Shown in pieces: positions 853-56,240 of a stretch of DNA of 56,975 nucleotides (the first letter of the stretch is position 1; each line of letters begins with the position of its first letter). Under the pieces are notes generated by a model. It had not been told where the DNA came from, ran no database searches, and saw only the letters and a program-made list of their open reading frames with translations. The translations under genes and the position numbers were made by a program. The DNA is from a virus, in the IMG/VR virus record IMGVR_UViG_3300035533_000009, positions 1 to 56,975 of that record. The stretch is one strand, 5' to 3'.

Positions 853-1180
853 AGCCGATGTAAAGCGCGAATTGTACGAGAATCAGCTCTGCTCGTCTGT
901 AGGCGCGACCCTGCAGAACCTCTACCCTGGGTGGCGCTGGTGGGTGGACTGCACCCTGCCCTCCGGCATGATAGCAGTGCGGAACCTCGACCTGGACGGT
1001 GACTACGGCTTTTATGTCCCGGTGGCTAAATATGTACAAGCGGATCAGCCCGCAAAGATCATCATGCGTGCAGGTGGCGAGATACTGGAGCGCTACAAGC
1101 AGCACCGAGGGCGCAGGATAGCAAGCGACCAGGACATTGCCCGTGATTTCAAGGGCGTGGCGAAGGGAGACAAGAACTGA
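845..1180 (+). CDS. Hypothetical protein (ORF open from 740; GTG 845 is the better start)
   Basis: GGAGG at 834-838 lies 6 nt before GTG 845. The stop overlaps the portal ATG (ATGA-type overlap at 1178-1182). Confidence 0.5.
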   Translation: MSKADVKRELYENQLCSSVGATLQNLYPGWRWWVDCTLPSGMIAVRNLDLDGDYGFYVPVAKYVQADQPAKIIMRAGGEILERYKQHRGRRIASDQDIARDFKGVAKGDKN

Positions 1181-25800: not shown

Positions 25801-28800
25801 CTCCACAAGGTCAATAAGTACGACGCTATTGTTATGAACCCTCCATTTGGAAAAGGCGGAAAGACCGCAATAGAACATCTGGAGAAAGCAACCAACCATC
25901 TGCGCGACGGTGGCCGTGTTGTGGCAATTATCCCAACCGGTCCGGCAGCGGATAAGCGTTTTGACAACTGGTTCTATGCTGAAGATGAGAAGGGCAAGAG
26001 CCTTACACCAGACCTGAGTTTAAGGGCTGAAATAAGTCTGCCATCATCAACCTTTGAGCGTGCCGGAACATCGGTTAAGGCACGGATAGTTGTTATTGAC
26101 AAAGGTAGCGAATCAACCGAGACAGCTACCCGCGACTATTCAAGTGCCACTGGTGTTAAAGAGTTTTTCGAGCGCATAGAAGATTCCAGCATACCGGAAC
26201 GTACTAAGGCGGAACCAGCAGAAGAAGCTATCGCGCCCCAGGCGGAAGGGAGCGAAAGCGGTTTCAAACTCGCGCAAACCACTCACGCAAAAAAAGGCAT
26301 CGACCTCTATGTGGCAACAAACATTGAGCGTGTTCCGTATGAAGAATATAAACGACTCAACTCAATAGCGAAAAAGCACAACGGCTATTACTCCAAGTTT
26401 AGCCGCAACGGTGCAGTGCCGGGCTTCCAGTTTGAAAGCGAGCAGGACAGGGCAGAGTTTTTGAAAGAAGCCGGTCAAGAACAGTTGCAATCACGCTCGG
26501 CACAGAAAACCAACAACACCACCGCACAGGTAGAAAAAGAAGCTAAAGCCTTCCTCGGCAAAGGCTTCGAGCGCATGAAGAACGCGGGTAAACTGAAGGT
26601 GGTGCAGAGTGTGAAGGACTTGCCAAACGTGGCGCGTGGAATGTTTGCCGCTGCATGGCACGGGTCGCCCCACAGGTTTGATAAGTTCAGCACAGAAAAT
26701 ATCGGTACGGGTGAGGGAGCGCAGGCTTACGGGCATGGTCTTTATTTTGCGTCAAGCCGGAGGGTGGCGGAGTGGTATAAGGAAAAATTATCTGGGAAGC
26801 TTCCATACAAAACGCGAGTACGGTCTTACGAAGCGCCAGAAGGTGGGCGAGGCTGGCTGGTGGAAGTTTTTTCTAAGGATCGGCGCACTGGAGAGGATGA
26901 CAGGACTCCGTATTATTTAAAAAAAGACGCAGATTTGAAGGATTATTTATCTGACACTGACGCAAAGCGCCTGATTACTAGCGCGGAATCCCAAGGTGAC
27001 GTTGATGAAGTAATCCGCATCAGCAATGAAGGCAACCTCTACCAAGTCGAACTCGCACCAAAGGAAGATGAGTACCTTCTCTGGGACAGGCCGCTGAGTG
27101 AACAGAGCGAGAAGGTGAAGACGGCGCTGTCTGATGCTATGGGGCCGGGGATACTGAAAGACGGTTCAGGGCAAAATCTTTACAAACACCTTTCTGGCAA
27201 TATGTCGCTTGGGTCGCAACAAGCCGCCTCCGGATACCTCCACTCCCTCGGCATCCGTGGTATCAAGTATCTTGACGGGTCAAGCCGCAGCAAAGGTGAA
27301 GGCAACTACAACTATGTCATATTTAACGATGCTGATGTTGAAATTACCGCTCTCTACTCCAAGAACGGCGATATTGCCGGCGTCTACCAGGACGGCACTA
27401 TCTACCTCGTTGCAGATCAGATAGAGAAAGGTGAAACCGCCGGGCTGCTGAAACACGAAGGCTTGCACCTCCTGCTGCGTAACGACCCGGCCTTTAAGAA
27501 GCGCAAGGGCGAGATCATGCGCCAGTTTAAGAACCTCAAGAACACCCCCAAAGTGCGGGAAGCGTACAACTCCGTGCCGGAAGATACCGCTGCCAACGTG
27601 CGCGACGAGGAAGCACTGGCGTACCTGGTGCAGAACCACAAAGAGCACAGCCTGGTTAAGCGGATCATCTCAGCGGTGAAGGCATGGATGTTCCGCAACG
27701 GTATTCCGGTAACAAAGCTGACCGAAGGTGACTTGACCGCACTTGCGGCGCAGGGGATTAAGCGGTTCAGCAAGGCACAGACCATAGAGCAGGCTTTAGC
27801 GCAAGCAGACGCTATGGTAGGCAGCGAGCAACCCGTATTCTCCCGCAAGCGCACCAAGGGCACCGAAGCGCAGGAGAAAGCCCTGCGCGAGACACAGGCG
27901 GTCCCTAAAGATGAAATGTCCTGGCATGAGCGCGTGCAGGACTGGATGAAGGGGATCAGCGAAAACTTCAATAAAGAGAACATCCGCCAATCGGTATTTG
28001 ACGAATATGCCAGTGTAGAGAGAGCGGAAAAGCAGAAATACGGCAAACTTCTGGACGCTGACTTTTCCCCATCCAAGGCGTTACGTGCTACCAAGAACCT
28101 TGATTCCGTTATGGCGGCAATCTTCATGAAGGGCAAGATACGCCGGAACAAGAACGGCTGGGTTGAGCTTGTTGACCCAAAAAACGGCAAAGGGTTCCTG
28201 CAAATCTTTGAACCCTTGTTTCAGTACGAGGGCGGATCGCTTACGCGCCTGTGGGAAGGTTACGCCGGGGCGCGACGTGCCAAGGAGTTGAAAGCGCAGA
28301 ACCGCGAGAACAACTACAGTGACGAGCAGATAAAGGAACTGCTGAAACTCGAACGAGAATACGACGGTACAAACGGAAAGCCGGACTTCAAGGCGATATT
28401 TGACGAATATCAGGCGTTCAATAAATCCATCCTGGACTTTGCCGAATCAGCAGGAGTAATTGACCCGGAAAGCCGCAAGTTGTGGGAGAGCAACGACTAT
28501 ATCCCCATGTACCGTATCCTCGACGACATGGACGACGCCAAGGGGCCGATGAAAAAAGGCGGCGTAGCAAGCCAGACAAGCGGAATACGCAAGCTCAAGG
28601 GCGGTGTAAGTAAACACGGCGGCGTACTGGAAAACATGGTAATGAACATGACCAAGCTGGTGGACGCCAGTTATAAGAACATCGCTGCTGAACGCGCCAT
28701 TGACCTGGGGCTTGAAACTGGGCACGCGGAAGCGGTGGCAGGATCGGCTGCGAACATGGAAGAGGAGCAGATACGCGAGTACGTCAACGGTGTAGGCCTC

Positions 28801-30501
28801 GACTACGACGCTATGGACGAAGGACAGCAGGAAGCATGGCGCAAGACCCTGCGTAAATTCAGCCCTGAAGGCGGGGATATTGTTCATATTCTCAAAGATG
28901 GGAAGCGCAAATACTACCGCGTGAACGACCCCCTCTTCCTGCGCAGCTTGCAGAGCGTAGGCGGCACGGATAGCAACGTATTAAAGCTGTTCCGTATGTC
29001 TAAAAGCCTGCTGACCAACACCGTTACGGCTAACCCTTCGTTTATGTTGGCGAACTTTCTGCGTGACTCCATAAGCACGTGGATGGTTACAGGTACAAAA
29101 ATGATACCGGTACTCTCCGGGATAAAGCAGGGCATGAAGGCGTGGAACGAGGACACGATGCTCTGGCAGATGATGGCAGCCGGTGCCGGGGGTGGGCGCT
29201 TCTACAACACCCGCTCCAAAGATGTGCGCAAGATGGCGAACCAGATCGAAAAGAAAATGAAAGATAAAAACTTCTCCGAGACGGTGCTGGATTCCCCGGG
29301 TAAAATCTGGCAGTTCTGGCAGAAGATGGGCAACGCCTCCGAGAATGCAAACCGTCTGGCAGTCATGCAGGATTATCTCAACCGGGGATACACCCAGACA
29401 GAGGCCGCATATCAGGCAATGGACGTAATGAACTTCACCCGCCACGGTGACGGGGTGATAATGAAGTTTATGATGGATACCGTACCCTTCTTGAACGCAC
29501 GTATTCAGGGCCTGGACCGCTTATACCGTGGGGCAAAGGAGAACCCCGGCACATTTGCTATACGGGGTGCAATGTTGGGCATGGCTTCCCTGGCGCTGTA
29601 CATGGCGAACAAAGATCGGGAAGAGTACGACGATCTCCCGGAGTGGGATAAAGATATTTACTGGCACTTTTTTACCCCGTTCGGACACTATCGTTTCCCG
29701 AAACCGTTTGAAGTTGGCGCAATCTTTGGTATGCTTCCAGAACGTATTGCTGAAGCGGTAAGCAAGGGCGAAACAAGGTTTCTCGCAGACGCCACAAAGC
29801 GGATGGTAATGGACACGTTCGCCTTCGATCCCATGCCGCAGTTGGTAAGACCGGCATACGAAATAGCCATAGACCGCAACCGGTTCTTTGATTCGCCCAT
29901 TGTCGGGTTCGATAAATACCTCGACCCGGAAGCACAGTACAACACCCGCACGCCGGTGAGTTATGTGAAACTCGCAGAAGCTATGCCTGATATAGCGCCG
30001 GACTTCCTGAGAAGCCCGAAACAGCTTGAACACTTAGTGCGGGGATACACATCTTCTGTCGGTTCAATCATGTTCTGGATGGCTGACCGGATGATGGAGC
30101 AGGCGGGGATGATCGATAAGAAAGAAACCATGCAGCTTACGGAGATGCCGGTGATAAAGCGCTTCTTCCGTGAGTATGACCCCAGAAGTGTAAAGTATTC
30201 CAGCTACTTTTACGATATGGTCAACGAGGCGGATCAGATATACAAGACCGTTAACAAGTACATGAAGTACGGACGCCGGGATGATGCCCGCGAACTTATA
30301 GACGACAACCGCGAACTGTTGCAGAAACGCAAAGGCCTGAACCGCTACAAGCGGCAAATATCCGAAATCAATCGCACAATGGATAAGATAGCCCGCTCAA
30401 GCCTTGCACCGGCAATAAAAGACGCACGCAACCGTAAGCTACAGCAGCAGAAAAACCAGCTGCAAAAGAGAGCCGTAGAGATCTACGGGGAAGGATTCTG
30501 A
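19837..30501 (+). CDS. Giant polyvalent (DarB-like) protein: SNF2-type helicase + N6-adenine DNA methyltransferase + PARP-like ADP-ribosyltransferase + HExxH metallopeptidase
   Basis: 3,554 codons, with a TTG start 8 nt after AGGAG. Motifs in order: GTGTGKT (23743), VVPDEADN (24001), QQEGRIYRVGQ (25234), LEPSAGHG (25657), NPPF (25837), AAWHGSPHRF...YGHGLYFAS (26650-26751), KHEGLH (27451). Confidence 0.9.
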   Translation: MDRLDSDFISEFDRAWQEVEAEEAEVKKRQNLPDPVRGLLGGIDTTQGLAYGTAALAGKALGSESLQDWGVEGYQRNMEESASYGESPEFGEDPLGWAGYNLGAVFPSMVEAAGGAAIGTMAAPGPGTAAGATAGRTILKKAIGKLSSDMVESYAKKHGREAVTKEIIDQATEQAQKATLKKLGGRAGAVGATLQMEAGGNFGEAVDVVGVDDASVTSAIATAIPSALVETAGGNIRILDKVLDSRYARMAKEGIQKNNPGIIARAITEGAKQAPAEAAQESFQELMSLSNLYMNDPTNEGLSAENVKSRLGESAGVGALAGGVFGGVTGAVSRGGTAQENISAKIAQAKQSVPKTGDPITDMTNEVQAETAALEQTATERWEGAWRGVAAQEDQRAKRARIRDSQFGDTIPGESVMQVSQRRNAGTGLLTTPERLLPYQEQVVAEQEPTVLPSDAPRSGYMSPEMFEQTGRMLPYSYRDNLSPEQQTERTNIALRERDRQQQSLTREQFQEAQKRVNQVDNYAQLRENTMRQIRNLERKKDLNKPQRNRLKRLQARFDRLTRVAPEKRTNADRVSKEGSKEFIPVMKRKEYRDILPEYVRQNVQTKDEMGMGSVVNADERGHFGQRTPSTNPAWAQDAIAVAGSVPKLRNAVEKAANGEPLGENQRIAVEIVADAYRDERNQGRVGEVLQRRTDTQNLVRTRQATKDKPSSQYLEMDEREQAVYDELDSETKTLHELTMQAYDVADENSVDALLESDLSDGEIAAELYNLIERKSNGRQSETGETTDRQAETAQGPEAGTTERDGTESAEGDVRQEVDPDQFPDATKMIETEQATEATAQPTADVAIEAGQGQRSESAAPDFEEMVKEAARWRGAALNHASNLDKKGKFKVSQRTTKGDLDEYLMRRYGIDETAARDVSNALTQRNVEDDRTADPADYDGEAWQQVGNPVASDETATQPDLPKERMKFVERKVFGEKEVTQPDEKPAKEPLAGNGAQEQKPKPEVSKNTIYTDEAAEKAREIIRASLSRVNAGIDPKLMQAGITLAGYHIEKGARTFAAYAKAMVEDMGDMVRPHLKAWYMAVKYEPSAAEMHADMDSAATVESAEIDDILKVNGGEDVTDERTPGSVERDSRDAGTGDEVGARGVSPNRGVRDSATGGQGVRSSAEQGDSAENSGGVPGRETPAPGKRGNQQAYPADGSVAAAQRTPGGNNGERGGDVSFVGSAVDPVATEAVGETATKGREKAETAKQQKQAEHKRVKLADRENIAETLPALYEEQQDDVYFAEQRFSKPKGTGVLFANGTGTGKTFTGLGIIKRFSMRGKDNVLIVVPNAKLIDDWIESGKALGLDIKKLKDTKDSGNGIVITTYANMGANNSLAEREWDLVVPDEADNLMSNKGGKETSALATLRAITSNPRGTYDRFRMLYSDKIAERDQLKESMQSNRSLYALDDTTDMQRTDLEKEYAGLKEEYDALTKELDQANNEIVDQIKNMPDEQRTRVAFLSATPIPYEKNVDYLEGYLFDYPEEGYIGNSRQGGFEKFMVENFGYRIRYHRLNEPDKEVNRGLMQRMFNKRLREEGVLSTRMLSVDKDYDRRFVLTENAIGSKIDDGLQFLWDNEQYRPLADIINKRFDYLSRRYLLEAIKARESVPLIKDHLSKGRKVVVFHDYKKGGGFNPFDLGTLRNSKEEIAKTDMTLGDLVKQFEAERPDLQQIDFEGLNSPVATFSQAFDDELLIVNGDFKERENLESFKRFNDEDSGPMVMLVQSAKNSGWSGHDTTGKYQRVMFNLGLPERPTMAIQQEGRIYRVGQASNAIFRYLNTGTNWERIAFAQTIAQRSSTAENLAMGEEARALMDGFIEAFEESDSYPAGHPGEGTGGKERDAAANAALTEWDRAMSLYYSQLKRNSKSKAQEGLDYFATPEPLGLKMVEWADVRGGEDVLEPSAGHGAIARWIPENVNATIVEPSLELSSKVRMVAQGKHITDTFENLHKVNKYDAIVMNPPFGKGGKTAIEHLEKATNHLRDGGRVVAIIPTGPAADKRFDNWFYAEDEKGKSLTPDLSLRAEISLPSSTFERAGTSVKARIVVIDKGSESTETATRDYSSATGVKEFFERIEDSSIPERTKAEPAEEAIAPQAEGSESGFKLAQTTHAKKGIDLYVATNIERVPYEEYKRLNSIAKKHNGYYSKFSRNGAVPGFQFESEQDRAEFLKEAGQEQLQSRSAQKTNNTTAQVEKEAKAFLGKGFERMKNAGKLKVVQSVKDLPNVARGMFAAAWHGSPHRFDKFSTENIGTGEGAQAYGHGLYFASSRRVAEWYKEKLSGKLPYKTRVRSYEAPEGGRGWLVEVFSKDRRTGEDDRTPYYLKKDADLKDYLSDTDAKRLITSAESQGDVDEVIRISNEGNLYQVELAPKEDEYLLWDRPLSEQSEKVKTALSDAMGPGILKDGSGQNLYKHLSGNMSLGSQQAASGYLHSLGIRGIKYLDGSSRSKGEGNYNYVIFNDADVEITALYSKNGDIAGVYQDGTIYLVADQIEKGETAGLLKHEGLHLLLRNDPAFKKRKGEIMRQFKNLKNTPKVREAYNSVPEDTAANVRDEEALAYLVQNHKEHSLVKRIISAVKAWMFRNGIPVTKLTEGDLTALAAQGIKRFSKAQTIEQALAQADAMVGSEQPVFSRKRTKGTEAQEKALRETQAVPKDEMSWHERVQDWMKGISENFNKENIRQSVFDEYASVERAEKQKYGKLLDADFSPSKALRATKNLDSVMAAIFMKGKIRRNKNGWVELVDPKNGKGFLQIFEPLFQYEGGSLTRLWEGYAGARRAKELKAQNRENNYSDEQIKELLKLEREYDGTNGKPDFKAIFDEYQAFNKSILDFAESAGVIDPESRKLWESNDYIPMYRILDDMDDAKGPMKKGGVASQTSGIRKLKGGVSKHGGVLENMVMNMTKLVDASYKNIAAERAIDLGLETGHAEAVAGSAANMEEEQIREYVNGVGLDYDAMDEGQQEAWRKTLRKFSPEGGDIVHILKDGKRKYYRVNDPLFLRSLQSVGGTDSNVLKLFRMSKSLLTNTVTANPSFMLANFLRDSISTWMVTGTKMIPVLSGIKQGMKAWNEDTMLWQMMAAGAGGGRFYNTRSKDVRKMANQIEKKMKDKNFSETVLDSPGKIWQFWQKMGNASENANRLAVMQDYLNRGYTQTEAAYQAMDVMNFTRHGDGVIMKFMMDTVPFLNARIQGLDRLYRGAKENPGTFAIRGAMLGMASLALYMANKDREEYDDLPEWDKDIYWHFFTPFGHYRFPKPFEVGAIFGMLPERIAEAVSKGETRFLADATKRMVMDTFAFDPMPQLVRPAYEIAIDRNRFFDSPIVGFDKYLDPEAQYNTRTPVSYVKLAEAMPDIAPDFLRSPKQLEHLVRGYTSSVGSIMFWMADRMMEQAGMIDKKETMQLTEMPVIKRFFREYDPRSVKYSSYFYDMVNEADQIYKTVNKYMKYGRRDDARELIDDNRELLQKRKGLNRYKRQISEINRTMDKIARSSLAPAIKDARNRKLQQQKNQLQKRAVEIYGEGF

Positions 30502-33974: not shown

Positions 33975-34499
33975 TCAAAAACCACTTACAGCAGTATTCC
34001 CCGCGTGCAATCTTACGTCACAACATACCGTAATGATTGCAATTATCCCAAATGCCAAAAAATAAAGCGTCATCGTTAACGCAAGATCGCTAGGCTTGAC
34101 GCCCAACGCATGACGCACCCAATCCTCGCGGAAAGCCAGCCGGTCAATGACCTGTTCATCTGCAACGACGCTGCCCCCGCCCGCAGAGGCCTCGACGCTG
34201 TATCGAGGTATTAGCACGAAGCCAGAAGGCATTTTGCCCGAATCCTCACCTGCGACGCTGCCCCCGTCACGTATTGTTTCCGGGTAAACAGCTTCACCAT
34301 CCGTGCGCAACAGCTCGCTTACCGACACCCCTAGCGCACTTGAGATTTTCTTTAGCGTCTCCATCTGGGGGCTACCGGTTTTTCCGGTAACTATTTCGTT
34401 AAGAGTTGACTGCTTCAATTCATATTTTTTTGCCGCAGCGTTTACGGATAAACCCCTGTTATTCAATATCTTTTTTATATTCTCGCCTACAGTACCCAT
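33975..34499 (-). CDS. cI-like repressor (HTH_XRE) with truncated S24 peptidase domain
   Basis: The ORF starts MGTVGENIKKILNNRGLSVNAAAKKYELKQSTLNEIVTGKTG (XRE helix-turn-helix). The LexA/cI-type segment IPRYSVEASAGGGSV...LAFREDWVRHALGVKPSDLAL follows. The ORF then ends in a hydrophobic tail instead of the GDSM...K catalytic core. Confidence 0.8.
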   Translation of the reverse strand: MGTVGENIKKILNNRGLSVNAAAKKYELKQSTLNEIVTGKTGSPQMETLKKISSALGVSVSELLRTDGEAVYPETIRDGGSVAGEDSGKMPSGFVLIPRYSVEASAGGGSVVADEQVIDRLAFREDWVRHALGVKPSDLALTMTLYFLAFGIIAIITVCCDVRLHAGNTAVSGF

Positions 34500-34515
34500 G
34501 CTCCCACCTAAAAAA

Positions 34516-34559
34516 GTTGACGGAAAACCGTTGACAGTTAACGGAACTCCGTTTATTGT
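34516..34559. promoter_or_regulatory. Immunity-region operators and rightward promoter
   Basis: Two 17-bp direct copies (GTTGACGGAAAACCGTT 34516-32; GTTAACGGAACTCCGTT 34537-53), each an ACGG-N4-CCGT palindrome. They overlap TTGACA (34531-36)-17 nt-TATTGT (34554-59). Confidence 0.5.
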
Positions 34560-34641
34560 CTTACTGCAAACAACGACACAGAACAGGTCAGAACGAATCA
34601 GAATGAAACCTTTTACCACACAGCGAGGAGGTGAGCAAAGC

Positions 34642-34833
34642 ATGAATGACAGCCGACTACTTTCACACGCCGGGGCAGCCAGATACTTAGGCGTATCCCC
34701 TACCACTCTGCGCGACAAACTGCGCAACAAGGTGTGGAACATCCCCACCACACATCTTGAGGGGCAGGAGCGGTTGCGCTACGACCGGCGCGATCTAGAC
34801 GAATTTATCCAGAGCCGCAAGGTCGCAAATTAA
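34642..34833 (+). CDS. Small HTH DNA-binding protein (Cro/excisionase-like, MerR-type HTH)
   Basis: LLSHAGAARYLGVSPTTLRDKLR...YDRRDLDEFI, divergent from the repressor. GGAGG lies 10 nt upstream of the ATG. Confidence 0.6.
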   Translation: MNDSRLLSHAGAARYLGVSPTTLRDKLRNKVWNIPTTHLEGQERLRYDRRDLDEFIQSRKVAN

Positions 34834-43189: not shown

Positions 43190-44293
43190 ATGGATAGTGC
43201 CGAAGAATTTACAACACTTGAATGGTGCGCAGGGTACGGAGGAATACAGCTTGGACTTAGAAGAGCTATCCCGAATATGCGAACAATCGCTTATAGCGAG
43301 ATCGAAGCCTTCGCTTGCGCGAACTTGGTTGCGAAGATGGAAGCGAGAAAGTTGGATGCAGCACCTATATGGCCGGATCTTAAAACCTTCCCAAGCGCAG
43401 AGTTTCACGGAAAAGTGGACTTGCTTGTTGCCGGATACCCGTGCCAGCCATTCAGCAGCGCAGGAAAACGCGGAGGAGCAAACGACCCCCGCCACCTATG
43501 GCCGTACATACGAGACGCAATTAGGCTTATTCAGCCCCGATACTGCTTCTTTGAAAACGTCGATGGACACATATCGCTTGGACTCTCCACAGTCCTCAGC
43601 GATTTGGAAGAAGATGGTTACCGAGCAACGTTTGGAATATTCAGCGCGGAAGAATGCGGCGCTCCACACCGCAGAAAGCGGGTGTTTATCCTCGCAAAAA
43701 GGATGGGCAACCCCTCAAGCGTTCGATTGTGTGGACATGGTACGGACGGAGGAGAAGTTACGCCAGACACGGATAGAGAAAAACGCAGGGTGCATGAACC
43801 TGCGGGAGCAAGTGCATTACCCGAACATGAACCACAGCCGGAAGCAATGGCCGACAATCAGTGTAAACGAATCGAAAAACTCGGTAGGGAAGTCACAGCT
43901 AAACCGGAACAGTATACCTCTAGGAACTATGGCAGCAATGCTTGGCCCGCAAGACCGGGAGAACCGCAATATGAGTGGGAGCCACCAAGAGTTGTGGAGA
44001 ACCCCGTCAACGTGCGAAAATGTTGGGGGGCAAATGTCGGAAGTGGAGGCGCGCGAAAACAACAGGACTGTCAAGTTGAGGTATCAGGTGGAACAGGCAA
44101 AGATAGGAAGCCAATCGAGTGCCAGACTCAACCCACGATGGGTGGAAACCCTAATGGGCTTACCCGTGGGATGGACTATGCCGAGTTGTGCCGAACCTGT
44201 GACAATCGTACCGACGAACTGCGATTGTTGGGAAACGGTATCGTGCCTGCAACAGCAGAGCGGGCATGGCGGGTGTTGTATGGGAGGCTGTGA
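43190..44293 (+). CDS. DNA (cytosine-5)-methyltransferase
   Basis: Motif I LEWCAGYGG, motif IV GYPCQPFS, motif VI FFENV and motif X LLGNGIVP, in canonical order. Confidence 0.9.
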   Translation: MDSAEEFTTLEWCAGYGGIQLGLRRAIPNMRTIAYSEIEAFACANLVAKMEARKLDAAPIWPDLKTFPSAEFHGKVDLLVAGYPCQPFSSAGKRGGANDPRHLWPYIRDAIRLIQPRYCFFENVDGHISLGLSTVLSDLEEDGYRATFGIFSAEECGAPHRRKRVFILAKRMGNPSSVRLCGHGTDGGEVTPDTDREKRRVHEPAGASALPEHEPQPEAMADNQCKRIEKLGREVTAKPEQYTSRNYGSNAWPARPGEPQYEWEPPRVVENPVNVRKCWGANVGSGGARKQQDCQVEVSGGTGKDRKPIECQTQPTMGGNPNGLTRGMDYAELCRTCDNRTDELRLLGNGIVPATAERAWRVLYGRL

Positions 44294-48432: not shown

Positions 48433-48656
48433 GACATAACAGACTACTTGTCCGGTTTGGCGACCGGGAAGAAACGATTTATAGCGCAGAATTGTATCTG
48501 TTACGCAAGATCGCAGAGACGAGCAGCGACATGGTGAAAGCCCGTGATTGGGAAGAATTTCGTGTTGCGTGTGGCGGACAGGAAAAGCTGGACAAAGCCC
48601 ACGCGGATGCGCTGCGCGAATACGAACAATGGCTGGCTGAAAGAGGCGAAGAGTGA
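48429..48656 (+). CDS. Hypothetical protein (75 aa)
   Basis: ORF with ATGA coupling upstream and a GTGA overlap downstream. Confidence 0.5.
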   Translation: MRHNRLLVRFGDREETIYSAELYLLRKIAETSSDMVKARDWEEFRVACGGQEKLDKAHADALREYEQWLAERGEE

Positions 48657-48907
48657 TACGCAGATGGTATGAAATAACTTGTGATTATTGCGGTTGTGCA
48701 TCTCATTATAAGGGCGCCGCAGCTGCGGCAAGCCTTGGAAAGGATAACCGATGCAATGCCCTCAATGTGAAAAAGAGACAGAGCATAGACACGTACACGA
48801 CTGCATACATGGTCTACCCTACTGTCACATGGCGGATAGCGAGCGGTATGAGTGTCTTGTATGTGGTTATGCAGTTTATAAACACGTGGGAGAGCAGCAA
48901 GGATTAA
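48653..48907 (+). CDS. Hypothetical ORF; only the first ~33 codons look coding (RWYEITCDYCGCASHY)
   Basis: GTG start overlapping the previous stop. Its 3' two-thirds overlap a better zinc-ribbon ORF in another frame. Confidence 0.3.
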   Translation: MIRRWYEITCDYCGCASHYKGAAAAASLGKDNRCNALNVKKRQSIDTYTTAYMVYPTVTWRIASGMSVLYVVMQFINTWESSKD

Positions 48908-48924
48908 AATACATCTTGGATTAA
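48751..48924 (+). CDS. Zinc-ribbon protein (57 aa)
   Basis: MQCPQCEKETEHRHVHDCIHGLPYCHMADSERYECLVCGYAVYKH..., with paired CxxC motifs. Below the track cut-off. Confidence 0.45.
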   Translation: MQCPQCEKETEHRHVHDCIHGLPYCHMADSERYECLVCGYAVYKHVGEQQGLKYILD

Positions 48925-48951
48925 CTGGAAAATACATTTGGAGGACTGTAA

Positions 48952-49194
48952 ATGAATCAAATACGATTGAATGGCCCGGAAACACTACCGACAAACGGTC
49001 AGCAGATATTGTTGTTTTTGCATGACGGAACAGTTTGTAGTGCGTGGTTTTCTAATGTTGCTCCGGAGAACGACGCGAAAGACGACGGCGAGTATGATTG
49101 GATATGTTGTGAAGATAGGTTCTTGATAGATGGTCACGACACGCACCTTATTCGGGGTTGGCTGCCGTTATGCTATTTTGAGGGGTTTGTATGA
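48952..49194 (+). CDS. DUF551-like protein
   Basis: ETLPTNGQQILLFLHDGTV...HLIRGWLPL resembles the DUF551 pattern (..P....vlv....W.PLP). Confidence 0.45.
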   Translation: MNQIRLNGPETLPTNGQQILLFLHDGTVCSAWFSNVAPENDAKDDGEYDWICCEDRFLIDGHDTHLIRGWLPLCYFEGFV

Positions 49195-49719: not shown

Positions 49720-49726
49720 TATTGAT

Positions 49727-51100
49727 CCAATGCGCGTCAAACCTCGCCCTTCAGGGCGAGGAAGGATAGCGCGAACCGCGAAGGGTTTTTGTTTGACAGG
49801 GTATAAATAAGGTGTTAAACTATGTGGCATGAATACCGTACAGCGTGCCTACAAATACCGCTTCTATCCGACGCCCGAGCAGGCCGAACAGCTTGCGCGG
49901 ACGTTTGGCTGTACGCGCTTCGTCTACAACCACTTCCTGCGGGTACGCATCGACGCCTGGTACGAGCACCAGCAGCGGGTCGGATACAACGACACTGCCA
50001 AGCAGCTTACCGAACTGAAAAAGCAGCCGGAAACGTTGTGGCTTCAGGATGTGTCGAACGTCTGCCTTCAGCAGTCGCTGCGCAACCTCGACGCGGCGTT
50101 CAGGAACTTCTTTCAGGGTCGTGCCAAGTACCCGACCTTCAAGAAGAAGCATGCGCGTCAGTCGGTCCGCTACACGACCAACGGTTTTTCGTACCGCGAC
50201 GGGCAGATCAAGCTGGCCAAGCACAAGGAACCGCTGAACATTCGCTGGAGCCGTCGTTTCACCGGGACGCCATCCAATGTCACTGTGAGCAAGGACAGCG
50301 CAGGCCGCTATCACATATCTATCCTCGTCGAGGAAGCAATAGAGGCGCTGCCGATCAGCCGGAAGGAGTGCGGCATCGACCTTGGCCTCACGCACGCGGT
50401 CATTACAAGCAACGGACGCAAGGTCAACAATCACCAATATATCAAGCAATCCGAGAAAAAACTGGCTCGCGCCCAGCGCCGCCTGTCACGCAAGAAGAAG
50501 GGGTCAGCCAACCGCGCCAAGGCAAAACTCAAGGTTGCACGTATCCACGCCAGGATCGCCGACCAGCGTCGAGACTTCGCGCACAAGCTAACCACGCAGC
50601 TAATTCGCGAGAACCAAGTAGTGGCTGCGGAAAGCCTGCAAGTGAAGAATATGCTCAAGAATCGCTCGCTGGCGAAAGCCATCAGCAACGTGGGGTGGCA
50701 TCAGCTCACCACTATGCTTGCGTACAAGGCGCAATGGTACGGGCGAGACTTTATTCAGATCGACAAGTTCTACCCGTCGAGCAAGCGTTGCCATGTCTGC
50801 GGTCACATTTCCGACGCGATGCCACTATCGGTCAGACATTGGGACTGCCCAGCCTGCGGCTCCCATCACGACCGCGACGTCAACGCTGCGAAGAACATCC
50901 TCGAGGCAGGCAAGGCCATCATGGCCGGTGCCGACAAGCTGCGAGAGCACGAGAAAACTACCGTGGGGCGCACGGGAGGTTAAGCCTGTGGAGTCTGTGT
51001 CAGCCTCTGAGGGCAATCCCAAGGAGCAACGGACTATGAAGCAGGAACCTGGAAGGCGACAACCAGGAATCCCCTTCCTTCAGGGAGGGGAGGACGTCAA
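49727..51100 (+). mobile_element. TnpB-only IS200/IS605-family element 1 (no tnpA)
   Basis: The LE hairpin CCTCGCCC-TTCA-GGGCGAGG (49742-61) lies 15 nt after TTGAT (49722-26). The RE hairpin CCCCTTCC-TTCA-GGGAGGGG (51071-90) is followed by 10 nt ending in TCAA. The last 36 nt are identical to element 2. Confidence 0.8.
49829..50983 (+). CDS. tnpB: TnpB RNA-guided nuclease (IS605 OrfB family)
   Basis: YKYRFYPTPEQ N-terminus; RuvC residues in GIDLGLTH, VAAESLQVKNM and HDRDVNAAKNI; zinc ribbon CHVCGH...CPACG. Confidence 0.9.
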   Translation: MNTVQRAYKYRFYPTPEQAEQLARTFGCTRFVYNHFLRVRIDAWYEHQQRVGYNDTAKQLTELKKQPETLWLQDVSNVCLQQSLRNLDAAFRNFFQGRAKYPTFKKKHARQSVRYTTNGFSYRDGQIKLAKHKEPLNIRWSRRFTGTPSNVTVSKDSAGRYHISILVEEAIEALPISRKECGIDLGLTHAVITSNGRKVNNHQYIKQSEKKLARAQRRLSRKKKGSANRAKAKLKVARIHARIADQRRDFAHKLTTQLIRENQVVAAESLQVKNMLKNRSLAKAISNVGWHQLTTMLAYKAQWYGRDFIQIDKFYPSSKRCHVCGHISDAMPLSVRHWDCPACGSHHDRDVNAAKNILEAGKAIMAGADKLREHEKTTVGRTGG

Positions 51101-51140
51101 GTGTGGCCCTTCTTCTCTTGGACATACACCTCCTTTCTTG

Positions 51141-51165
51141 CCCCCTCGAAAGAGGGGGACTTTTT
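51141..51165. terminator. Intrinsic terminator (+ strand T-run) between IS element 1 and the end of the minus-strand operon
   Basis: CCCCCTC-GAAA-GAGGGGG followed by ACTTTTT. Confidence 0.6.
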
Positions 51166-51170
51166 AAGGA

Positions 51171-51593
51171 CTATTCGGAGAGGCGGGCACCGCATGTTTC
51201 CAACACCTCGCGGTATTCGGTGACGATCCCGTGGGGCTGCCAGAAGCGGTAAGCGACGTCCTGGATCGCGATTTTACTCGCAAGGGGGAGCGCATCTATG
51301 CTCCTTGCGAATGACTTGCTATAAACCCCCCACTTTTCGGCCAGCCCATCTTTTGTGCCGCACTCAGCGACATCGGCTTCCAGGTTATGGGCGTGGAGCC
51401 CTTCAAGTTCAACGCCATTGAGCATGTCCATCAAAAAGAGCCATTCGTTTTCCGTGAACTCAGGCATGGCATCCTTTATCATGCAGTCCCAATCCCGGAC
51501 GATGCCGGTCAGACGCCGGGAGAACGCTCCGGGTTCGTCGCACCCGATTATGGGCATGATTTCGTCGGATAAATAGATAGTTTTTCTGGGCAT
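51171..51593 (-). CDS. Hypothetical protein F of the minus-strand operon (140 aa)
   Basis: MPRKTIYLSDEIMPIIG... (possibly an RHH-like start). GGAG RBS directly after the upstream terminator. Met36 of the track ORF is used. Confidence 0.55.
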   Translation of the reverse strand: MPRKTIYLSDEIMPIIGCDEPGAFSRRLTGIVRDWDCMIKDAMPEFTENEWLFLMDMLNGVELEGLHAHNLEADVAECGTKDGLAEKWGVYSKSFARSIDALPLASKIAIQDVAYRFWQPHGIVTEYREVLETCGARLSE

Positions 51594-51605
51594 GTTATTT
51601 CTCCT

Positions 51606-51630
51606 ATAAAAAGCCCCTCCGAAGAGGGGC
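51606..51630 (-). terminator. Intra-operon intrinsic terminator/attenuator (minus strand)
   Basis: On the minus strand, GCCCCTC-TTCG-GAGGGGC followed by TTTTTAT. Confidence 0.55.
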
Positions 51631-51636
51631 GGGTAG

Positions 51637-51819
51637 CTATTCTTCGACTTCGACCGGACGAATTGTCCAGCCGTCACCCTCCGGGAAAACCGTGTCAACC
51701 GGCTTCCCGGCCTCCCCTTTGCGGGGAGATTCGGTTACTGTAACCCCTTCGTCAGATGAGAAAAACACGAGGCCCAGCGGCCCCGCTGCAACTTCAATAA
51801 ACGCTTCAAACTTTTCCAT
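51637..51819 (-). CDS. Hypothetical protein E (60 aa)
   Basis: MEKFEAFIEVAAGPLGLVFFSSDEG.... GGAG lies 7 nt before ATG 51819. Confidence 0.5.
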   Translation of the reverse strand: MEKFEAFIEVAAGPLGLVFFSSDEGVTVTESPRKGEAGKPVDTVFPEGDGWTIRPVEVEE

Positions 51820-51872
51820 GGTCATTCTCCTTTCTGTTTATTGCCCCGACCGGAGCCGGGGCGGTGAATGGT

Positions 51873-52646
51873 TTATAACGCAGCGGCTACAACTTCTACC
51901 GGCTTCATCCTGGTGGCGCAGCGTTTGCCGGAAGCGCAGATTTGATATTCACAACCGCTGACCTCGACCTTGACTATCATCAGGTTGGTGTGTTCCCGCG
52001 CTGGGCCAAAGATGTTGTTTGCGCGGGCTGCCTCCAGTACTTCATCCATTGAGCGGTAGTAGTAGAATCCGCCGGTGTGGTCATCAGTGGCTTTTTCTAC
52101 GCGGGTTTTGCCAAGCGGCCATTCTGATCCATCCCAGCAGCTGACCAGGTTGCCGGATTCGTCGATGGTGAGGGCTTTGTATCCCTCGCGTTTTACCTGG
52201 GCTTTTGTTCTGAGCTGTTCTTTGCCTGTTACTACTGCAATGGCGTACCCGAGGAGGTTCCCGCCGGCCTTGGCAGCTTTGGCGGCTACCGATTTTTTGG
52301 CAGGCTCCACGATAGTGCCGTTGCCGTGCTTTTTAATCAGATAGTAGTCTTTTTTTACTGTTTTGATTCCGTAGCGCGTTCCCTCTGCTTCGCGGCAGCA
52401 GACCAGAACAGCTTTGCCGTTGGGGGCTATGTCGTAGATTTCGTGATGGATGGCGGTACCGATCCGCTTGTTGCCGATGCGAGAGTTTACGCGCTCCCAT
52501 GTCATGTTGTCGTAGGCCTGGGGGATTCTCTTTTTGCTGGCCGCTTTTGATACCAGTTCGCGAGCCTGCTCAAGCAGGTTTGATTCTGTGTTCAGGTTGA
52601 TGATTTCGCCATACTCGCTGCGGGTCATAGTTGCTACGGTCATCAT
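51873..52646 (-). CDS. Hypothetical protein D (257 aa)
   Basis: AAAGGAG RBS 7 nt before the ATG. No motif recognised. Confidence 0.6.
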   Translation of the reverse strand: MMTVATMTRSEYGEIINLNTESNLLEQARELVSKAASKKRIPQAYDNMTWERVNSRIGNKRIGTAIHHEIYDIAPNGKAVLVCCREAEGTRYGIKTVKKDYYLIKKHGNGTIVEPAKKSVAAKAAKAGGNLLGYAIAVVTGKEQLRTKAQVKREGYKALTIDESGNLVSCWDGSEWPLGKTRVEKATDDHTGGFYYYRSMDEVLEAARANNIFGPAREHTNLMIVKVEVSGCEYQICASGKRCATRMKPVEVVAAAL

Positions 52647-52652
52647 GATATT

Positions 52653-52730
52653 TCTCCTTTCGCCTCATCCGGCGTTTCAGGTAGAGGTTATCCTTCTTTC
52701 ACTTCATCCGATGGTTCAGGTAGAGGTTAT
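52653..52730 (-). repeat. Tandem ~39-bp leader repeat (two copies), with a third copy at 53707-53746
   Basis: On the minus strand: GATAACCTCTACCTGAA(A/C)C(G/A)(C/T)CGGATGA(G/A)G(C/T)GAAAG(G/A)AG. The proximal copy supplies the SD of gene D. The third copy supplies the SD of gene A. Confidence 0.8.
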
Positions 52731-52741
52731 TTTTATATTCA

Positions 52742-52924
52742 TTATTCTGCAGATAGTTTTTCGGCAAGAGCTATAGCCCAGTCCTCTGCCTCTGCCTTAC
52801 AAGGAAACCAATCGTGGTCTTCGTAATATTTGGGATCATTTACGCCAGTGCAGCATCCGATATTAGATACTGTTGCAAACCATGTGTTTTTGTCAGATTT
52901 GTATACGGTATAGTTAAATTTCAT
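52742..52924 (-). CDS. Hypothetical protein C (60 aa)
   Basis: MKFNYTVYKSDKNTWFATVSNIGCCTGVNDPKYYEDHDWFPCK.... ORF only. Confidence 0.45.
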   Translation of the reverse strand: MKFNYTVYKSDKNTWFATVSNIGCCTGVNDPKYYEDHDWFPCKAEAEDWAIALAEKLSAE

Positions 52925-52942
52925 GATTTTTCCTTTGGTTGT

Positions 52943-53004
52943 GCCCCTCCGGAGAGGGGCTGCATGTTCCCCTTTGGTTATGCCCCGACTATTTAAGCCG
53001 GGGC
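52943..53004 (-). repeat. Two tandem hairpin + A-rich + SD-like intercistronic units
   Basis: Hairpins GCCCCTC-CGGA-GAGGGGC (52943-60) and GCCCCG-11 nt-CGGGGC (52982-53004). On the minus strand each is followed by A(C/T)AACCAAAGG. A similar unit lies at 51843-62. Confidence 0.7.
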
Positions 53005-53022
53005 GAGATGTCCCATATCTTT

Positions 53023-53409
53023 TTAGGTCGTTCCTTCGACAAAGCCGATATGACGGAATACAGCCTTTTTTACTGTTTTCCCTTCAACAATCTCCTCAAC
53101 ACTCTCCCGCCGTGAAAAGGCGTAGAGCGGAGTGATTTTACTCTGAGCCAGTGCTCTTTCGAGCACCGGCATGAAGAACGGCGCGCCGCCGATCATGGCG
53201 CACCACTGGGCGTGATCCCCGCAGATGTGACAGTCAATCTCTCGATGGACTATCTCAACCAATTTCAAGGCGCGAGACTCCATCTCTTGATGAGATGGGA
53301 TTTCGTCAAAGGTGAGCAAGTTTTGCGCCTGCTTTTTCCCTTCCGGTTCCAGAACGCCCTGCTCAGGTGTTCCAGTATGTTGGGTCAGATTTACTATTAT
53401 TCTTTCCAT
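53023..53409 (-). CDS. Hypothetical protein B (128 aa)
   Basis: MERIIVNLTQHTGTPEQGV...CHICGDHAQWCAMIGGAPFFMP.... GGAG RBS. Looks like an alpha/beta fold family that I cannot name. Confidence 0.55.
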   Translation of the reverse strand: MERIIVNLTQHTGTPEQGVLEPEGKKQAQNLLTFDEIPSHQEMESRALKLVEIVHREIDCHICGDHAQWCAMIGGAPFFMPVLERALAQSKITPLYAFSRRESVEEIVEGKTVKKAVFRHIGFVEGTT

Positions 53410-53467
53410 GTTGTTCTCCTTCTGTTTAATAGATATGCTAATCAAAGCATACATATGCCCTTCAAGG

Positions 53468-53701
53468 TCAGATTATGGTCACTCTGGGACGGAACGCTCC
53501 GTCCTCCATACTAACTATGTTTTCCCAGTAGCCGAGAAGGTCGCCCTTGCGGGCTTGGAAGCTTTTCCCCAGAAGCTTAGGGAAGGTCGAGGCGGGGGCA
53601 TCCGCCTCTATTTTATAAAGGTCGTGAGCCGGGGTGTACAAGTACACCCCCAACTCAACTTCTTCAGTCCTTGCTTTCCTGAATCCTTTGTATACCAACA
53701 T
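53468..53701 (-). CDS. Hypothetical protein A (77 aa), first gene of the minus-strand operon
   Basis: GGAGG lies 5 nt before ATG 53701 (Met8 of the track ORF). Confidence 0.5.
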   Translation of the reverse strand: MLVYKGFRKARTEEVELGVYLYTPAHDLYKIEADAPASTFPKLLGKSFQARKGDLLGYWENIVSMEDGAFRPRVTII

Positions 53702-53775
53702 AACATCCTCCTTTCGCCCCATTCGGCGTTTCAGGTTGTGGGGATCGGCTTATCCGTTCCCCTGACTTGTGTGTA

Positions 53776-53803
53776 ATACTATCATACCATCATACATCGT
53801 CAA
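53776..53803 (-). promoter_or_regulatory. sigma70-like promoter TTGACG-16 nt-TAGTAT for the minus-strand operon
   Basis: The reverse complement of 53776-53803 reads TTGACGATGTATGATGGTATGATAGTAT, about 70 nt upstream of gene A. Confidence 0.5.
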
Positions 53804-53985: not shown

Positions 53986-55364
53986 CTTTTGCGCGGCAAG
54001 CCCCGTCGTTCACGGCGGGGAAGGATAGCGCGGACGGCGTAGCCGGCTTGTAAATTTGGGCTATTGCTTTTTTGTAAAGCTGTGAGAGCATCGAGACATG
54101 AAACGACTTCAAGCCTTTAAATACGCATTGGTTTCAGACGGTCAGCAAGAGCGGCAAATGCGCCGCTTTGCTGGATCGTGCCGGTTCGTATTTAACCGGG
54201 CACTGGCGTTGCAGAAGTCGCTTCATGAGCAGGGAGAGAAGAAGGTCGGCTACGCTGGGCTATGCAAACAACTCACCGAGTGGCGCAATAGCCCGGATAC
54301 CGCTTGGTTGGCGGAAGCGCCGGTTCATCCGCTCCAGCAATCACTCAAGGACCTGGAGCGGGCTTACGCCAACTTCTTCGCGGGTCGGGCGGCGTTCCCC
54401 CGGCGAAAAAAGAAAGGCCAGTGCGACAGATTTCGCTATCCCGACCCGAAACAGATCAAGCTCGACCAGGGCAACAGCCGTATCTTTCTTCCCAAGCTCG
54501 GTTGGCTGCGCTATCGCAATAGCCGCGAGGTCCTTGGGGACGTAAAGAACGTCACCGTCTCACAAAGAGCCGGTCGGTGGTTTGTCAGTATCCAGACCGA
54601 ACGGGAGGTTGCCGCTCCTATTCATCCGTCCGGCTCCACGGTCGGAATCGACATGGGAGTGGCCCGGTTCGCCACACTGTCGGACGGAACGGTAGTCGCC
54701 CCATTGAACAGCTTTAAAAAGCACCAACGGGCGCTTCGCAAAGCCCAGCAATCGCTTGCACGCAAAGTCAAACGCTCGAACAACTGGAAAAAGCAGAAAC
54801 GCAAAATTGCAAAGCTCCACGCCCGGATCGCCGATGTGCGTAACGACTTTCTTCACAAAACCAGCACCGCAATCAGCAAAAACCACGCGGTTGTCGTGCT
54901 GGAAGACTTGATCGTGAAGAATATGTCCGCATCAGCGAAAGGCACCGTGGAGCAGCCAGGCCGCAACGTCCGGCAAAAATCGGGACTCAACCGCTCCATT
55001 CTCGACCAGGGATGGTGCGAGTTTCGCCGGCAACTGGAGTACAAGCTGGCATGGGCGGGTGGATTGGTTATTGCCATACCGCCACGCAACACCAGCCGCA
55101 CCTGCCCGTGTTGCGGTCACATTTGCGCAGACAACCGCAAGACGCAGGCTGATTTCCTCTGCGTCCATTGCGGACACGCAGGAAATGCCGACCTGGTTGC
55201 GGCAATCAACATAAAAAGGGCAGGACATGCCCGGTTCGCCTGTGAAGTGAGTGGTGCAACAATGCCGCCAGCAGCAGGAACCCACCGAAGCGACTTCGGG
55301 TCAGCTCAATGCTGCGCCTTAGCGCCGTAGGAATCCCCTTCCTTCAGGGAGGGGAGGACGTCAA
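53986..55364 (+). mobile_element. TnpB-only IS200/IS605-family element 2 (no tnpA)
   Basis: The LE hairpin CCCCGTCG-TTCA-CGGCGGGG (54001-20) lies 15 nt after CTGAC (53981-85) and is followed by AAGGATAGCGCG, as in element 1. The 36-nt RE (55329-64) is identical to 51065-51100. Confidence 0.8.
54098..55330 (+). CDS. tnpB: TnpB RNA-guided nuclease (IS605 OrfB family), divergent second copy
   Basis: RuvC residues in VGIDMGVARF, VVLEDLIVKNM and GNADLVAAINI. Zinc ribbon CPCCGH...CVHCGH. Confidence 0.9.
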   Translation: MKRLQAFKYALVSDGQQERQMRRFAGSCRFVFNRALALQKSLHEQGEKKVGYAGLCKQLTEWRNSPDTAWLAEAPVHPLQQSLKDLERAYANFFAGRAAFPRRKKKGQCDRFRYPDPKQIKLDQGNSRIFLPKLGWLRYRNSREVLGDVKNVTVSQRAGRWFVSIQTEREVAAPIHPSGSTVGIDMGVARFATLSDGTVVAPLNSFKKHQRALRKAQQSLARKVKRSNNWKKQKRKIAKLHARIADVRNDFLHKTSTAISKNHAVVVLEDLIVKNMSASAKGTVEQPGRNVRQKSGLNRSILDQGWCEFRRQLEYKLAWAGGLVIAIPPRNTSRTCPCCGHICADNRKTQADFLCVHCGHAGNADLVAAINIKRAGHARFACEVSGATMPPAAGTHRSDFGSAQCCALAP

Positions 55365-55712: not shown

Positions 55713-56240
55713 ATGGCAAGGCAGGTAAAGCTCACAGCAAAGCAGGAGGCATTTGTGCGCGAATACCTGGTTGATCTTAATGCAACGCAGGCGGCGATAC
55801 GGGCGGGGTATAAGGCGGTTAATGCGCATACAGTGGCTTCGCAAAACTTGGCAAAGCCATATGTAGCTGAGCGTATTCAGGAACTTATGGATGAGCGCTC
55901 AAAGAAAACCGAGATAACCGCTGAAAGGGTCTTGGAGGAGTTAGCCAAGATGGCTTTCGCGAACATTGCAAATATCTACGATGACCAGGGTAGGCTGCTC
56001 CCGGTGAAGGAGATGCCAGAAGATGTGGCGGCGTGTCTCCAGGAAGTAACCGAGGGTGTGGATCGGAACGGCGATGTGCAGCGCAAGTACAAGATGGCAG
56101 ACAAAAAATCCACGCTGGAGTTGCTGGGCAAACACCTGAAACTCTTTACCGATAAAACCGAGGTAACAGGCAAGGACGGGGAACAGCTCATGCCGACGAC
56201 AGTACAGCTTGTGGCACCGAAGGGGTCTGGCAGCAAGTGA
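55713..56240 (+). CDS. terS: Terminase small subunit (Terminase_2 / P27-type)
   Basis: LTAKQEAFVREYLVDLNATQAAIRAGY...AKPYVAERI is the typical small-terminase HTH N-terminus. Overlaps the terL start. Confidence 0.85.
   Translation: MARQVKLTAKQEAFVREYLVDLNATQAAIRAGYKAVNAHTVASQNLAKPYVAERIQELMDERSKKTEITAERVLEELAKMAFANIANIYDDQGRLLPVKEMPEDVAACLQEVTEGVDRNGDVQRKYKMADKKSTLELLGKHLKLFTDKTEVTGKDGEQLMPTTVQLVAPKGSGSK

Follow-up and report, generated by a model that had tools for sequence, protein, structure and literature searches.

We find that the six minus-strand open reading frames (ORFs A to F, named in order of transcription) at one end of the virus record IMGVR_UViG_3300035533_000009 form an array of cassettes and not a fixed six-gene system: a promoter, a structured leader and the terminal gene F are kept among related phages, and the genes between them differ. 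The window, by which we mean the whole stretch of DNA that was analysed, is an entire Joint Genome Institute (JGI) contig of 56,975 bp, and its features are listed in Table 1. We suggest, with confidence somewhat better than even, that the block is a self-repressed counter-defence operon of the anti-CRISPR-associated (Aca) type, built as an array of exchangeable cassettes. This suggestion follows from a layout that resembles anti-CRISPR (acr)-aca loci and from two products, B and F, that belong to families with proven counter-CRISPR relatives. The generic acr-aca layout fits the block, which has a conserved regulator gene at its 3′-end, variable small genes upstream of it and a strong promoter with repeats, and which is carried on a mobile element.

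An earlier interpretation, made from the letters of the DNA without database searches (hereafter the sequence-only reading), had described the block as a self-contained operon of entirely unrecognised proteins and as a candidate defence, anti-defence or moron module. All six ORFs are present and their sizes agree with those it gave (77, 128, 60, 257, 60 and 140 aa). Its view of the operon as accessory, moron-like and autonomous, with a promoter of its own, is supported, as is the moron position: the block occupies a slot of variable content that has the early genes on one side and terS on the other. That the products are entirely unrecognised does not hold, as B belongs to the Csx20/MJ1673 family and F is a remote homologue of AcrIE10. 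As to function, counter-defence is the best supported; no known defence system was matched in PADLOC, where the only matches were those of B to Csx20 accessory models and A, C, D, E and F gave none.

The cassette structure is seen by comparison with close relatives (contigs L081–L086, L090–L092 and L127–L131). In these, the segment 53985–53699, which contains the promoter and the leader up to the Shine-Dalgarno (SD) sequence, is 96–98% identical to the window, and the same is true of 51641–51101, which contains the internal hairpin, F and the terminal hairpin. Homology breaks exactly past the SD, and three or four cargo variants are found between the identical promoter/leader and F. The cargo of L081 and L090–L092 is a 169-aa protein and a 75-aa protein. 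L128 carries genes for a 106-aa protein, B′ (81% identical to B) and a 76-aa protein, then a second leader copy and genes for 294-, 59- and 48-aa proteins, followed by F, and L127 carries the first cassette of L128 followed by the leader and the 169-aa gene. F is ~98% identical in relatives with other cargo. The six-gene unit of the sequence-only reading is thus not conserved, and a conserved six-gene synteny was rejected: the fixed elements are the promoter, the leader and F alone, and the sole conserved gene pair is D-F. None of the alternative cargo proteins has a Pfam family, and a lack of Pfam matches among cargo proteins is usual for anti-defence genes. The 169-aa protein (L081 3717–4226; also in L090, L091, L092, L127, L130 and L131) has a net charge of −24 and an isoelectric point (pI) of 4.3, a composition reminiscent of DNA-mimic anti-restriction proteins.

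The sigma70-like promoter that had been proposed, TTGACG-16-TAGTAT, was recovered by a consensus scan. The scan of 8 kb returned four such sites where chance would give 5.5; the match by itself is therefore no proof, and the reality of the promoter rests on comparison. Its boxes are 100% conserved in relatives with other cargo, the promoter together with the leader is ~97% identical in three relatives with different cargo, and −35 and −10 boxes at equal distance precede the D homologues of diverged phages, with TTGACA as the −35 box in most loci. Three tandem 8-bp repeats in this promoter constitute a candidate operator for F. They contain GTATGAT twice at 8-nt spacing and then GTATTAC, an arrangement reached by 13 out of 1000 shuffles. 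In the diverged promoters of L093, L132 and L133 the 8-bp periodicity is kept and the bases are changed. Perfect inverted repeats of 7–12 bp are found in the promoters of L095–L097, L101, L104, L105 and L112 (at most 16 out of 500 shuffles reach them), and 9-nt direct repeats in those of L107 and L119 (0 out of 1000 shuffles).

The leader that follows the promoter contains two hairpins, HP1 and HP2, and in HP2 a CCU box pairs with the AGG of the SD around a CGCC/GGCG stem. The predicted fold of the leader RNA of the window has an energy of −25.9 kcal/mol (z = −3.5). When eight leader copies were aligned, 92.9% of cells were paired, compared to 35–47% in slid controls, with compensatory changes in three pairs, and RNAalifold recovered the CCU/AGG and CGC/GCG helices from 17 leaders, also with compensatory changes in three pairs. 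In the leaders, a hairpin that varies comes first and the invariant box ACCU(G/A)A second, followed by a short helix immediately ahead of the SD and by AAAGGAG. No Rfam family matched the leader, and scans of viral contigs and metagenomes with the leader motif gave the already-known relatives plus L132/L133 only. Inside the operon the HP2/SD part of the leader is repeated ahead of D, where the motif is exact at 52654–52682 and the degenerate copy retains the stem through a G-C to A-U change; the same internal copy is present in L127/L128. In all, the leader precedes gene A, gene D (as tandem partial copies) and the 169-aa, 294-aa, DUF6908 and 101-aa genes, and it thus marks the head of each cassette. 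In a Desulfuromonadales prophage (L123 3723–4939, the same as L101/L134) it heads a cassette of DUF6908 and a 241-aa radical S-adenosylmethionine protein directly upstream of D-F.

The sequence-only reading noted that F starts like a ribbon-helix-helix (RHH) protein, and this is borne out by homology to AcrIE10. A word-index search gave 12 close relatives of F, and a HMMER search with their profile gave 808 cluster representatives. A profile of 76 diverse members searched against the PDB matched AcrIE10 (9m7t, 9uer, 9m71 and 8ji9, E 4e-6 to 8e-6) over residues 6–112 of the 116 in the chain. A narrow profile of F again ranked AcrIE10 at the top (E 0.02), and alignment of F with AcrIE10 by hhalign gave a probability of 95% and an E-value of 3.8e-8 over 96 columns with 15% identity. 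The N-termini of the family have in common a (K/R)(K/R)(T/S)IYL strand and an SGR helix cap. The N-terminal RHH of AcrIE10 binds an inverted repeat over its own −35/−10 region and represses the operon ~80-fold, the C-terminal helical domain binds Cas7, and the gene is the last in its acr operon (PMC13530269). F is predicted to be an autorepressor (Aca), and by analogy with AcrIE10 it is possibly also an inhibitor itself. F relatives, sampled twice outside D loci, lie amid small ORFs without assigned function.

The second recognisable product, B, has weak C-terminal matches to Csx20 in PADLOC and NCBIfam (E ~1e-5), and one PADLOC match aligns residues 6–123 of B with the Csx20 part of a CARF-HEPN-Csx20 fusion. 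The Csx20 model is matched by 52 out of 54 aligned B relatives, all below its cut-off (best E 6.4e-11). B has 1344 homologues, and the precomputed Pfam assignment PF27247 (MJ1673) is found on B and on all 120 relatives among the matches listed. MJ1673, which has ~130 aa, is linked to the type III-A CRISPR loci of Methanococcales (PMC3973734), and our search for literature on PF27247 and DUF7666 found nothing. The invariant positions in the B alignment include N7, T9, Q10, H11, G74-G75-A76, S99, R101, E102, K114 and H120, of which H11, S99, R101, E102, K114 and H120 would be compatible with an active site. The AlphaFold2 model of B (predicted local distance difference test, pLDDT, 95.5) has alternating strands and helices, and the top PDB folds are the CARF proteins Cam1, Can2, Cad1 and Sis0455 (E 0.02–0.5, template modelling score, TM, ≤0.40). 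Csx20 itself degrades cyclic tetra-adenylate (cA4), and at higher enzyme concentration also cyclic tri-adenylate (cA3), and is present in four phage genomes (PMC12409355).

Homologues of csx20 in phages are furthermore reported from acr-type operons in which the RHH regulator Aca14 is encoded last (PMC13551039). We find in Pasteurella phage Pm86 a B-family fragment and, after it, an ORF of 71 aa whose sequence is RHH-like, which is the arrangement described for the csx20-aca14 operon of P. multocida (PMC13551039). Relatives of B are common in viral contigs (181 loci in IMG/VR), and B itself lies in a phage accessory operon, not beside a type III CRISPR-cas locus. None of 80 fetched B loci contained A, C, D or E, and a fixed partner gene for B was rejected, given the heterogeneous neighbours across loci.

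D has 64 relatives, none with a Pfam domain, and a Pfam search over 52 of them gave noise only. Its AlphaFold2 model has a pLDDT of 94.3, no match was found in the PDB by fold or by profile, and one domain of ~100–160 aligned columns resembles viral DUF7666 proteins (E ~1e-4). The pI of D is 9.2. An F-family gene is located 3′ of D on the same strand in 23 out of 30 viral D loci, at a median distance of 54 nt, and no B homologue is found in these 30 loci. In most cases the D-F pair is preceded by a TTGACA promoter of its own, in which inverted or direct repeats particular to the lineage are found. In 15–18 out of 32 D loci it lies between a ~640-aa ORF, which is conserved ~1.6 kb upstream and is terL-sized by length only, and an 80-aa gpW-sized ORF with a lambda-type portal (Phage_portal_2). 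The lambda-like loci include L087, L094–L105 and L123; the pair in the window adjoins terS instead. The module favors the border of packaging genes. Genomic homologues of D are found in Desulfuromonadales, Geobacter, Syntrophaceae and Burkholderiales, where F follows the closer ones only. As to the host of the phage, the homologues of D point to Desulfuromonadales/Geobacter.

B, D and F represent conserved protein families (1344 matches, 64 matches and 808 cluster representatives, respectively). A, C and E have no relatives beyond this phage, and as genes they are supported by SD sites and tight spacing only. A canonical GGAG-type SD had been claimed for all six genes; we find AAGGAG or TAGGAG 5–7 nt 5′ of the ATG in A, B, D, E and F, and AAGGAA only in C. 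In the JGI gene calls, A and B begin at ATGs farther upstream (53722 and 53454) and have 84 and 143 aa. The SD positions favor the shorter forms, as does the family alignment in the case of B, and the upstream ATG of A falls within the leader hairpin. A had no match in Pfam, PHROGs, PADLOC, NCBIfam, the PDB or phages, and E, with a pI of 4.3, had none in Pfam, PHROGs, PADLOC, NCBIfam and further searches. C matched PHROG 11562 (E 8.5e-4), which is without known function, and nothing else in Pfam, PADLOC, NCBIfam or phage genomes. A likeness of C residues 23–47 (CCTGVNDPKYYEDHDWFPC...) to plant Pot-II proteinase inhibitors (phmmer E 0.0035) was judged a probable coincidence of cysteine pattern. 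Taken together, A, C, D, E and F gave nothing in Pfam, PHROGs, PADLOC and NCBIfam beyond two weak PHROGs without known function. Comparison of A to E with solved anti-CRISPR proteins (Acrs) and named families matched none except Csx20 (B), and no validated Acr family is found in the operon. Among 50,697 GenBank phages, the region had no match by megablast, and A, C, D and F had none by tblastn.

The hairpin with a T-run that had been noted between E and F at 51606–51630 was confirmed by a terminator scan, and it lies inside the block conserved with the relatives (51647–51101). It is possibly an attenuator, which would lower the expression of F relative to the cargo. A terminal hairpin had been placed at 51141–51165; the hairpin is real, and the T-run lies on the plus strand, so that it is at best a bidirectional terminator. 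The junctions before C, E and F (52928–53004, 51835–51870 and 51606–51630) consist of GC-rich hairpins (GCCCCTCCGRAGAGGGGC, CCCCGGC..GTCGGGG) followed by ribosome sites of the type CA(A/T)AACCAAAGG, and short pieces of them recur in L128 at other gene boundaries, like shared linkers.

The anatomy of the block, the homologies, the mosaic structure, the linkage of D and F and the conservation of promoter and leader are results of the analysis; the biochemical activities, the operator and the role of the leader are inferred. We propose the following course of events for the putative counter-defence operon. The host-type promoter would fire upon entry, and the transcript would open with the structured leader, in which the CCU box would mask the ribosome-binding site. 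The first cassette (A, B and C) would be followed by the repeated leader and the second cassette (D and E), and the hairpin with its T-run would dampen read-through into the last gene. F would then bind the tandem repeats overlapping the −10 box and close the promoter once its product suffices. B could cut or sequester the cyclic oligoadenylates of type III CRISPR systems, or of cyclic-oligonucleotide-based anti-phage signaling systems (CBASS), keeping host effector nucleases off, and D, A, C and E would be further inhibitors. Related phages could swap cassettes by recombination in the conserved leader and hairpin junctions. A more far-reaching version, which we put forward only tentatively and consider doubtful, is that the promoter, operator, leader, D and F constitute an undescribed and widespread self-regulated mobile cassette system. 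In such a system the anti-SD leader would serve both translational control, perhaps bound by F or D, and as the head for recombination, integron-like and without an integrase; D would be a new family of anti-defence effectors, and F a bifunctional inhibitor and regulator.

Several points weigh against a counter-defence function. The score of B to the Csx20 model NF040559 is 24.9 bits against a cut-off of 70 bits (E 2e-5, covering the C-terminal 38 residues), and its fold matches CARF proteins weakly (Foldseek against the PDB, E 0.02, TM 0.40). D is large and basic, unlike typical Acrs, and the D-F pair of lambda-like phages lies inside the block of head genes, a position atypical of early anti-defence genes. 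The window promoter has direct repeats instead of an inverted repeat of the AcrIE10/Aca14 type. There is no validated Acr or other anti-defence protein in the operon, and the F family outside D loci is sampled only twice. A rival explanation is an ordinary hyperplastic or moron region, whose cargo would have no relation to defence and would act in lysogenic conversion or the takeover of the host; F would then be a plain transcription factor and B a CARF-like nucleotide-binding protein with another ligand. In favor of this, four of the six products are without informative homology; the B-family genes are found in mixed early-region neighbourhoods with no fixed partner, next to helicase-like, nuclease-like and ParB-like genes (labels given by sequence inspection only), and F relatives lie amid small ORFs without assigned function. 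We nevertheless regard this as unlikely, as a Csx20-family gene combined with an AcrIE10-like terminal regulator and a strong, repeat-bearing promoter is the signature reported for acr-aca loci, and the turnover of cargo among near-identical phages points to arms-race selection.

The linkage of D and F could be read in two other ways. The pair could be a toxin-antitoxin or abortive-infection module carried by the phage, in which F, as an RHH antitoxin, would neutralise D and repress the promoter, with the remaining genes as unrelated passengers. Such a layout, a tight and conserved pair under a promoter of its own with palindromic operators, is classical for autoregulated type II systems; the F profile faintly matches two RHH proteins, the ParD2 antitoxin (E 0.64) and CdbA (E 0.34), and D is basic with a fold that has no solved relative. 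We find this quite improbable, since F is kept at ~98% identity in relatives that do not have D, and its best full-length homologue is an anti-CRISPR/Aca protein, not an antitoxin. Furthermore, D and F have no match in PADLOC at E ≤1 or in Pfam at the curated cut-off, and with the putative toxin first the gene order would be the less common one. Alternatively, D-F could be tied to DNA packaging or head assembly, given that it adjoins the ~640-aa terL-sized ORF and the portal in the lambda-like D loci and terS in the window. This we hold to be very improbable: close relatives of the window phage are without D, the pair keeps a sigma70-type promoter and an operator of its own even where it lies within late operons, and it has no likeness to structural or packaging families in Pfam, PHROGs or the PDB. 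We therefore favor a self-repressed counter-defence operon, at the level of confidence given above.

Table 1. Features of the six-ORF block and its immediate surroundings; coordinates are those of the window.
Feature	Coordinates	Strand	Description	Basis or remark
Promoter	53776-53803	-	sigma70-like, TTGACG-16-TAGTAT, TG before -10	scan and conservation
Promoter repeats	53772-53795	-	three tandem 8-bp repeats, GTATGATG GTATGATA GTATTACA	fill the spacer and overlap -10; unique in the window
Structured 5′ leader	53702-53762	-	HP1 53762-53740, HP2 53739-53703	
Gene A	53468-53701	-	77 aa, ORFan	SD AAGGAGG
Gene B	53023-53409	-	128 aa, Csx20/MJ1673-family CARF-like protein, predicted cyclic-oligoadenylate ring nuclease	
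Gene C	52742-52924	-	60 aa, Cys-rich ORFan	weak SD AAGGAA
Internal leader copies	52654-52731	-	39-nt HP2/SD segment of the leader, twice in tandem	head the second cassette; repeat family D1
Gene D	51873-52646	-	257 aa, basic, two-domain, without assigned function	
Gene E	51637-51819	-	60 aa, very acidic ORFan	SD AAGGAG
Internal hairpin	51606-51630	-	GC-rich hairpin and T-run between E and F	terminator scan (51630-51613)
Gene F	51171-51593	-	140 aa, AcrIE10-like, N-terminal ribbon-helix-helix and helical C-terminal domain	
Terminal hairpin	51141-51158	T-run on +	hairpin at the end of the operon	scan; backbone common with L081
TnpB element	49725-51100	+	IS200/IS605-type, directly 3′ of the operon	Pfam OrfB_IS605/Cas12f1-like_TNB
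Second TnpB element	53986-55364	+	~180 bp upstream of the promoter; right boundary approximate	Pfam

The operon is bracketed by two TnpB genes (49829–50983 and 54098–55330), as had been noted from the sequence and as Pfam confirms. These flanks had been taken as a hallmark of the module; however, L081 joins window position 51101 straight to 49724, and L081, L090, L091 and L127 join 53985 to ~55355. As neither element is present in relatives that have retained the locus, we conclude that both were inserted later and do not belong to the module. For the same reason, and because their TnpB genes are different (384 and 410 aa), a composite transposon bounded by them was rejected. Both elements end in an identical 35-nt 3′-end (51066–51100 and 55330–55364), and a third copy with the same end is found at another site in relatives (L081 6921–8137). 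Weak Rfam matches to HgcC (E 0.04 and 0.21) cover the TnpB 3′-ends, where the omega-RNA is expected. In this phage lineage the elements seem to be actively mobile.

Elsewhere in the window, the ORF at 55713–56240 is a Terminase_2 small subunit and that at 1180–3402 an SU10-type portal, both by Pfam, and a single ORF of 3554 aa (19837–30501, plus strand) is found in the structural region of this SU10-portal-type phage. The claim that, besides the repressor, no other block is transcribed against the genome was examined only in part: 33975–34751 on the minus strand is an HTH_3 protein by Pfam, and the minus-strand ORF at 48479–48994 was rejected as a gene, being a shadow of plus-strand genes according to the gene calls of L081. 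In the early region, 43190–44293 encodes a C-5 cytosine DNA methylase (Pfam E 2e-34), which would likely be a second counter-restriction function of the same phage.

B is a candidate phage ring nuclease against cyclic-oligoadenylate signaling that can be tested, and F is a candidate founder of a large family of AcrIE10-like regulators (808 clusters). This family could mark new counter-defence genes by guilt-by-association, as Aca1 and Aca2 did, and D, the 169-aa protein with its charge of −24 and the small ORFans are candidates for new inhibitors. The recurrence of an SD-masking leader suggests a way in which phages could control such genes and trade them.

Anti-defence operons that are under Aca control and contain a phage homologue of Csx20 have been described before. 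We found no earlier description of four features: the F family as a large AcrIE10-like group carried by phages, the pairing of D with F, the SD-masking leader in repeated copies, and the exchange of cassettes at this leader. The dual DNA and RNA control of acr operons of the Aca2 type and the promoter-early-stem-loop (PeSL) regulatory cassettes of T4-type phages resemble parts of this arrangement. Unlike PeSLs, the leader repeats of the window are without a promoter, and the leader belongs to no Rfam family. The likeness is that a structured element spanning the ribosome-binding site repeats at gene heads, and that conserved repeats flank variable ORFs, which could mediate shuffling.

Among known operons, acrIE9.2-acrIE10 of Klebsiella plasmids (PMC13530269, PMC11317147) resembles the block in that its last gene encodes a protein with RHH and helical domains homologous to F, in that AcrIE10 represses its own promoter through repeats over the −35/−10 region, and in having an unrelated inhibitor gene upstream. 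AcrIE10 is a plasmid-encoded protein of 116 aa that acts with inverted repeats, whereas F is a remote homologue of 140 aa in a phage with direct repeats, and the upstream partner D is unrelated to AcrIE9. Csx20 and AcrIII-1/Crn2 are small stand-alone proteins that degrade cA4, and AcrIII-1 is the viral precedent against type III signaling (PMC12409355). B is like Csx20 in family, size and predicted CARF-like fold, although it scores below the curated threshold and does not lie beside a CRISPR locus, and it is unrelated to the DUF1874 fold of AcrIII-1. The csx20-aca14 operon of P. multocida prophages (PMC13551039) differs in that Aca14 is a 71-aa RHH protein without an AcrIE10-like domain, and the window has four further genes and an internal leader repeat. 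It nonetheless shares with the window a phage Csx20-family gene, a small operon, a terminal RHH autorepressor, which in the window F is predicted to be, and repeats in the promoter.

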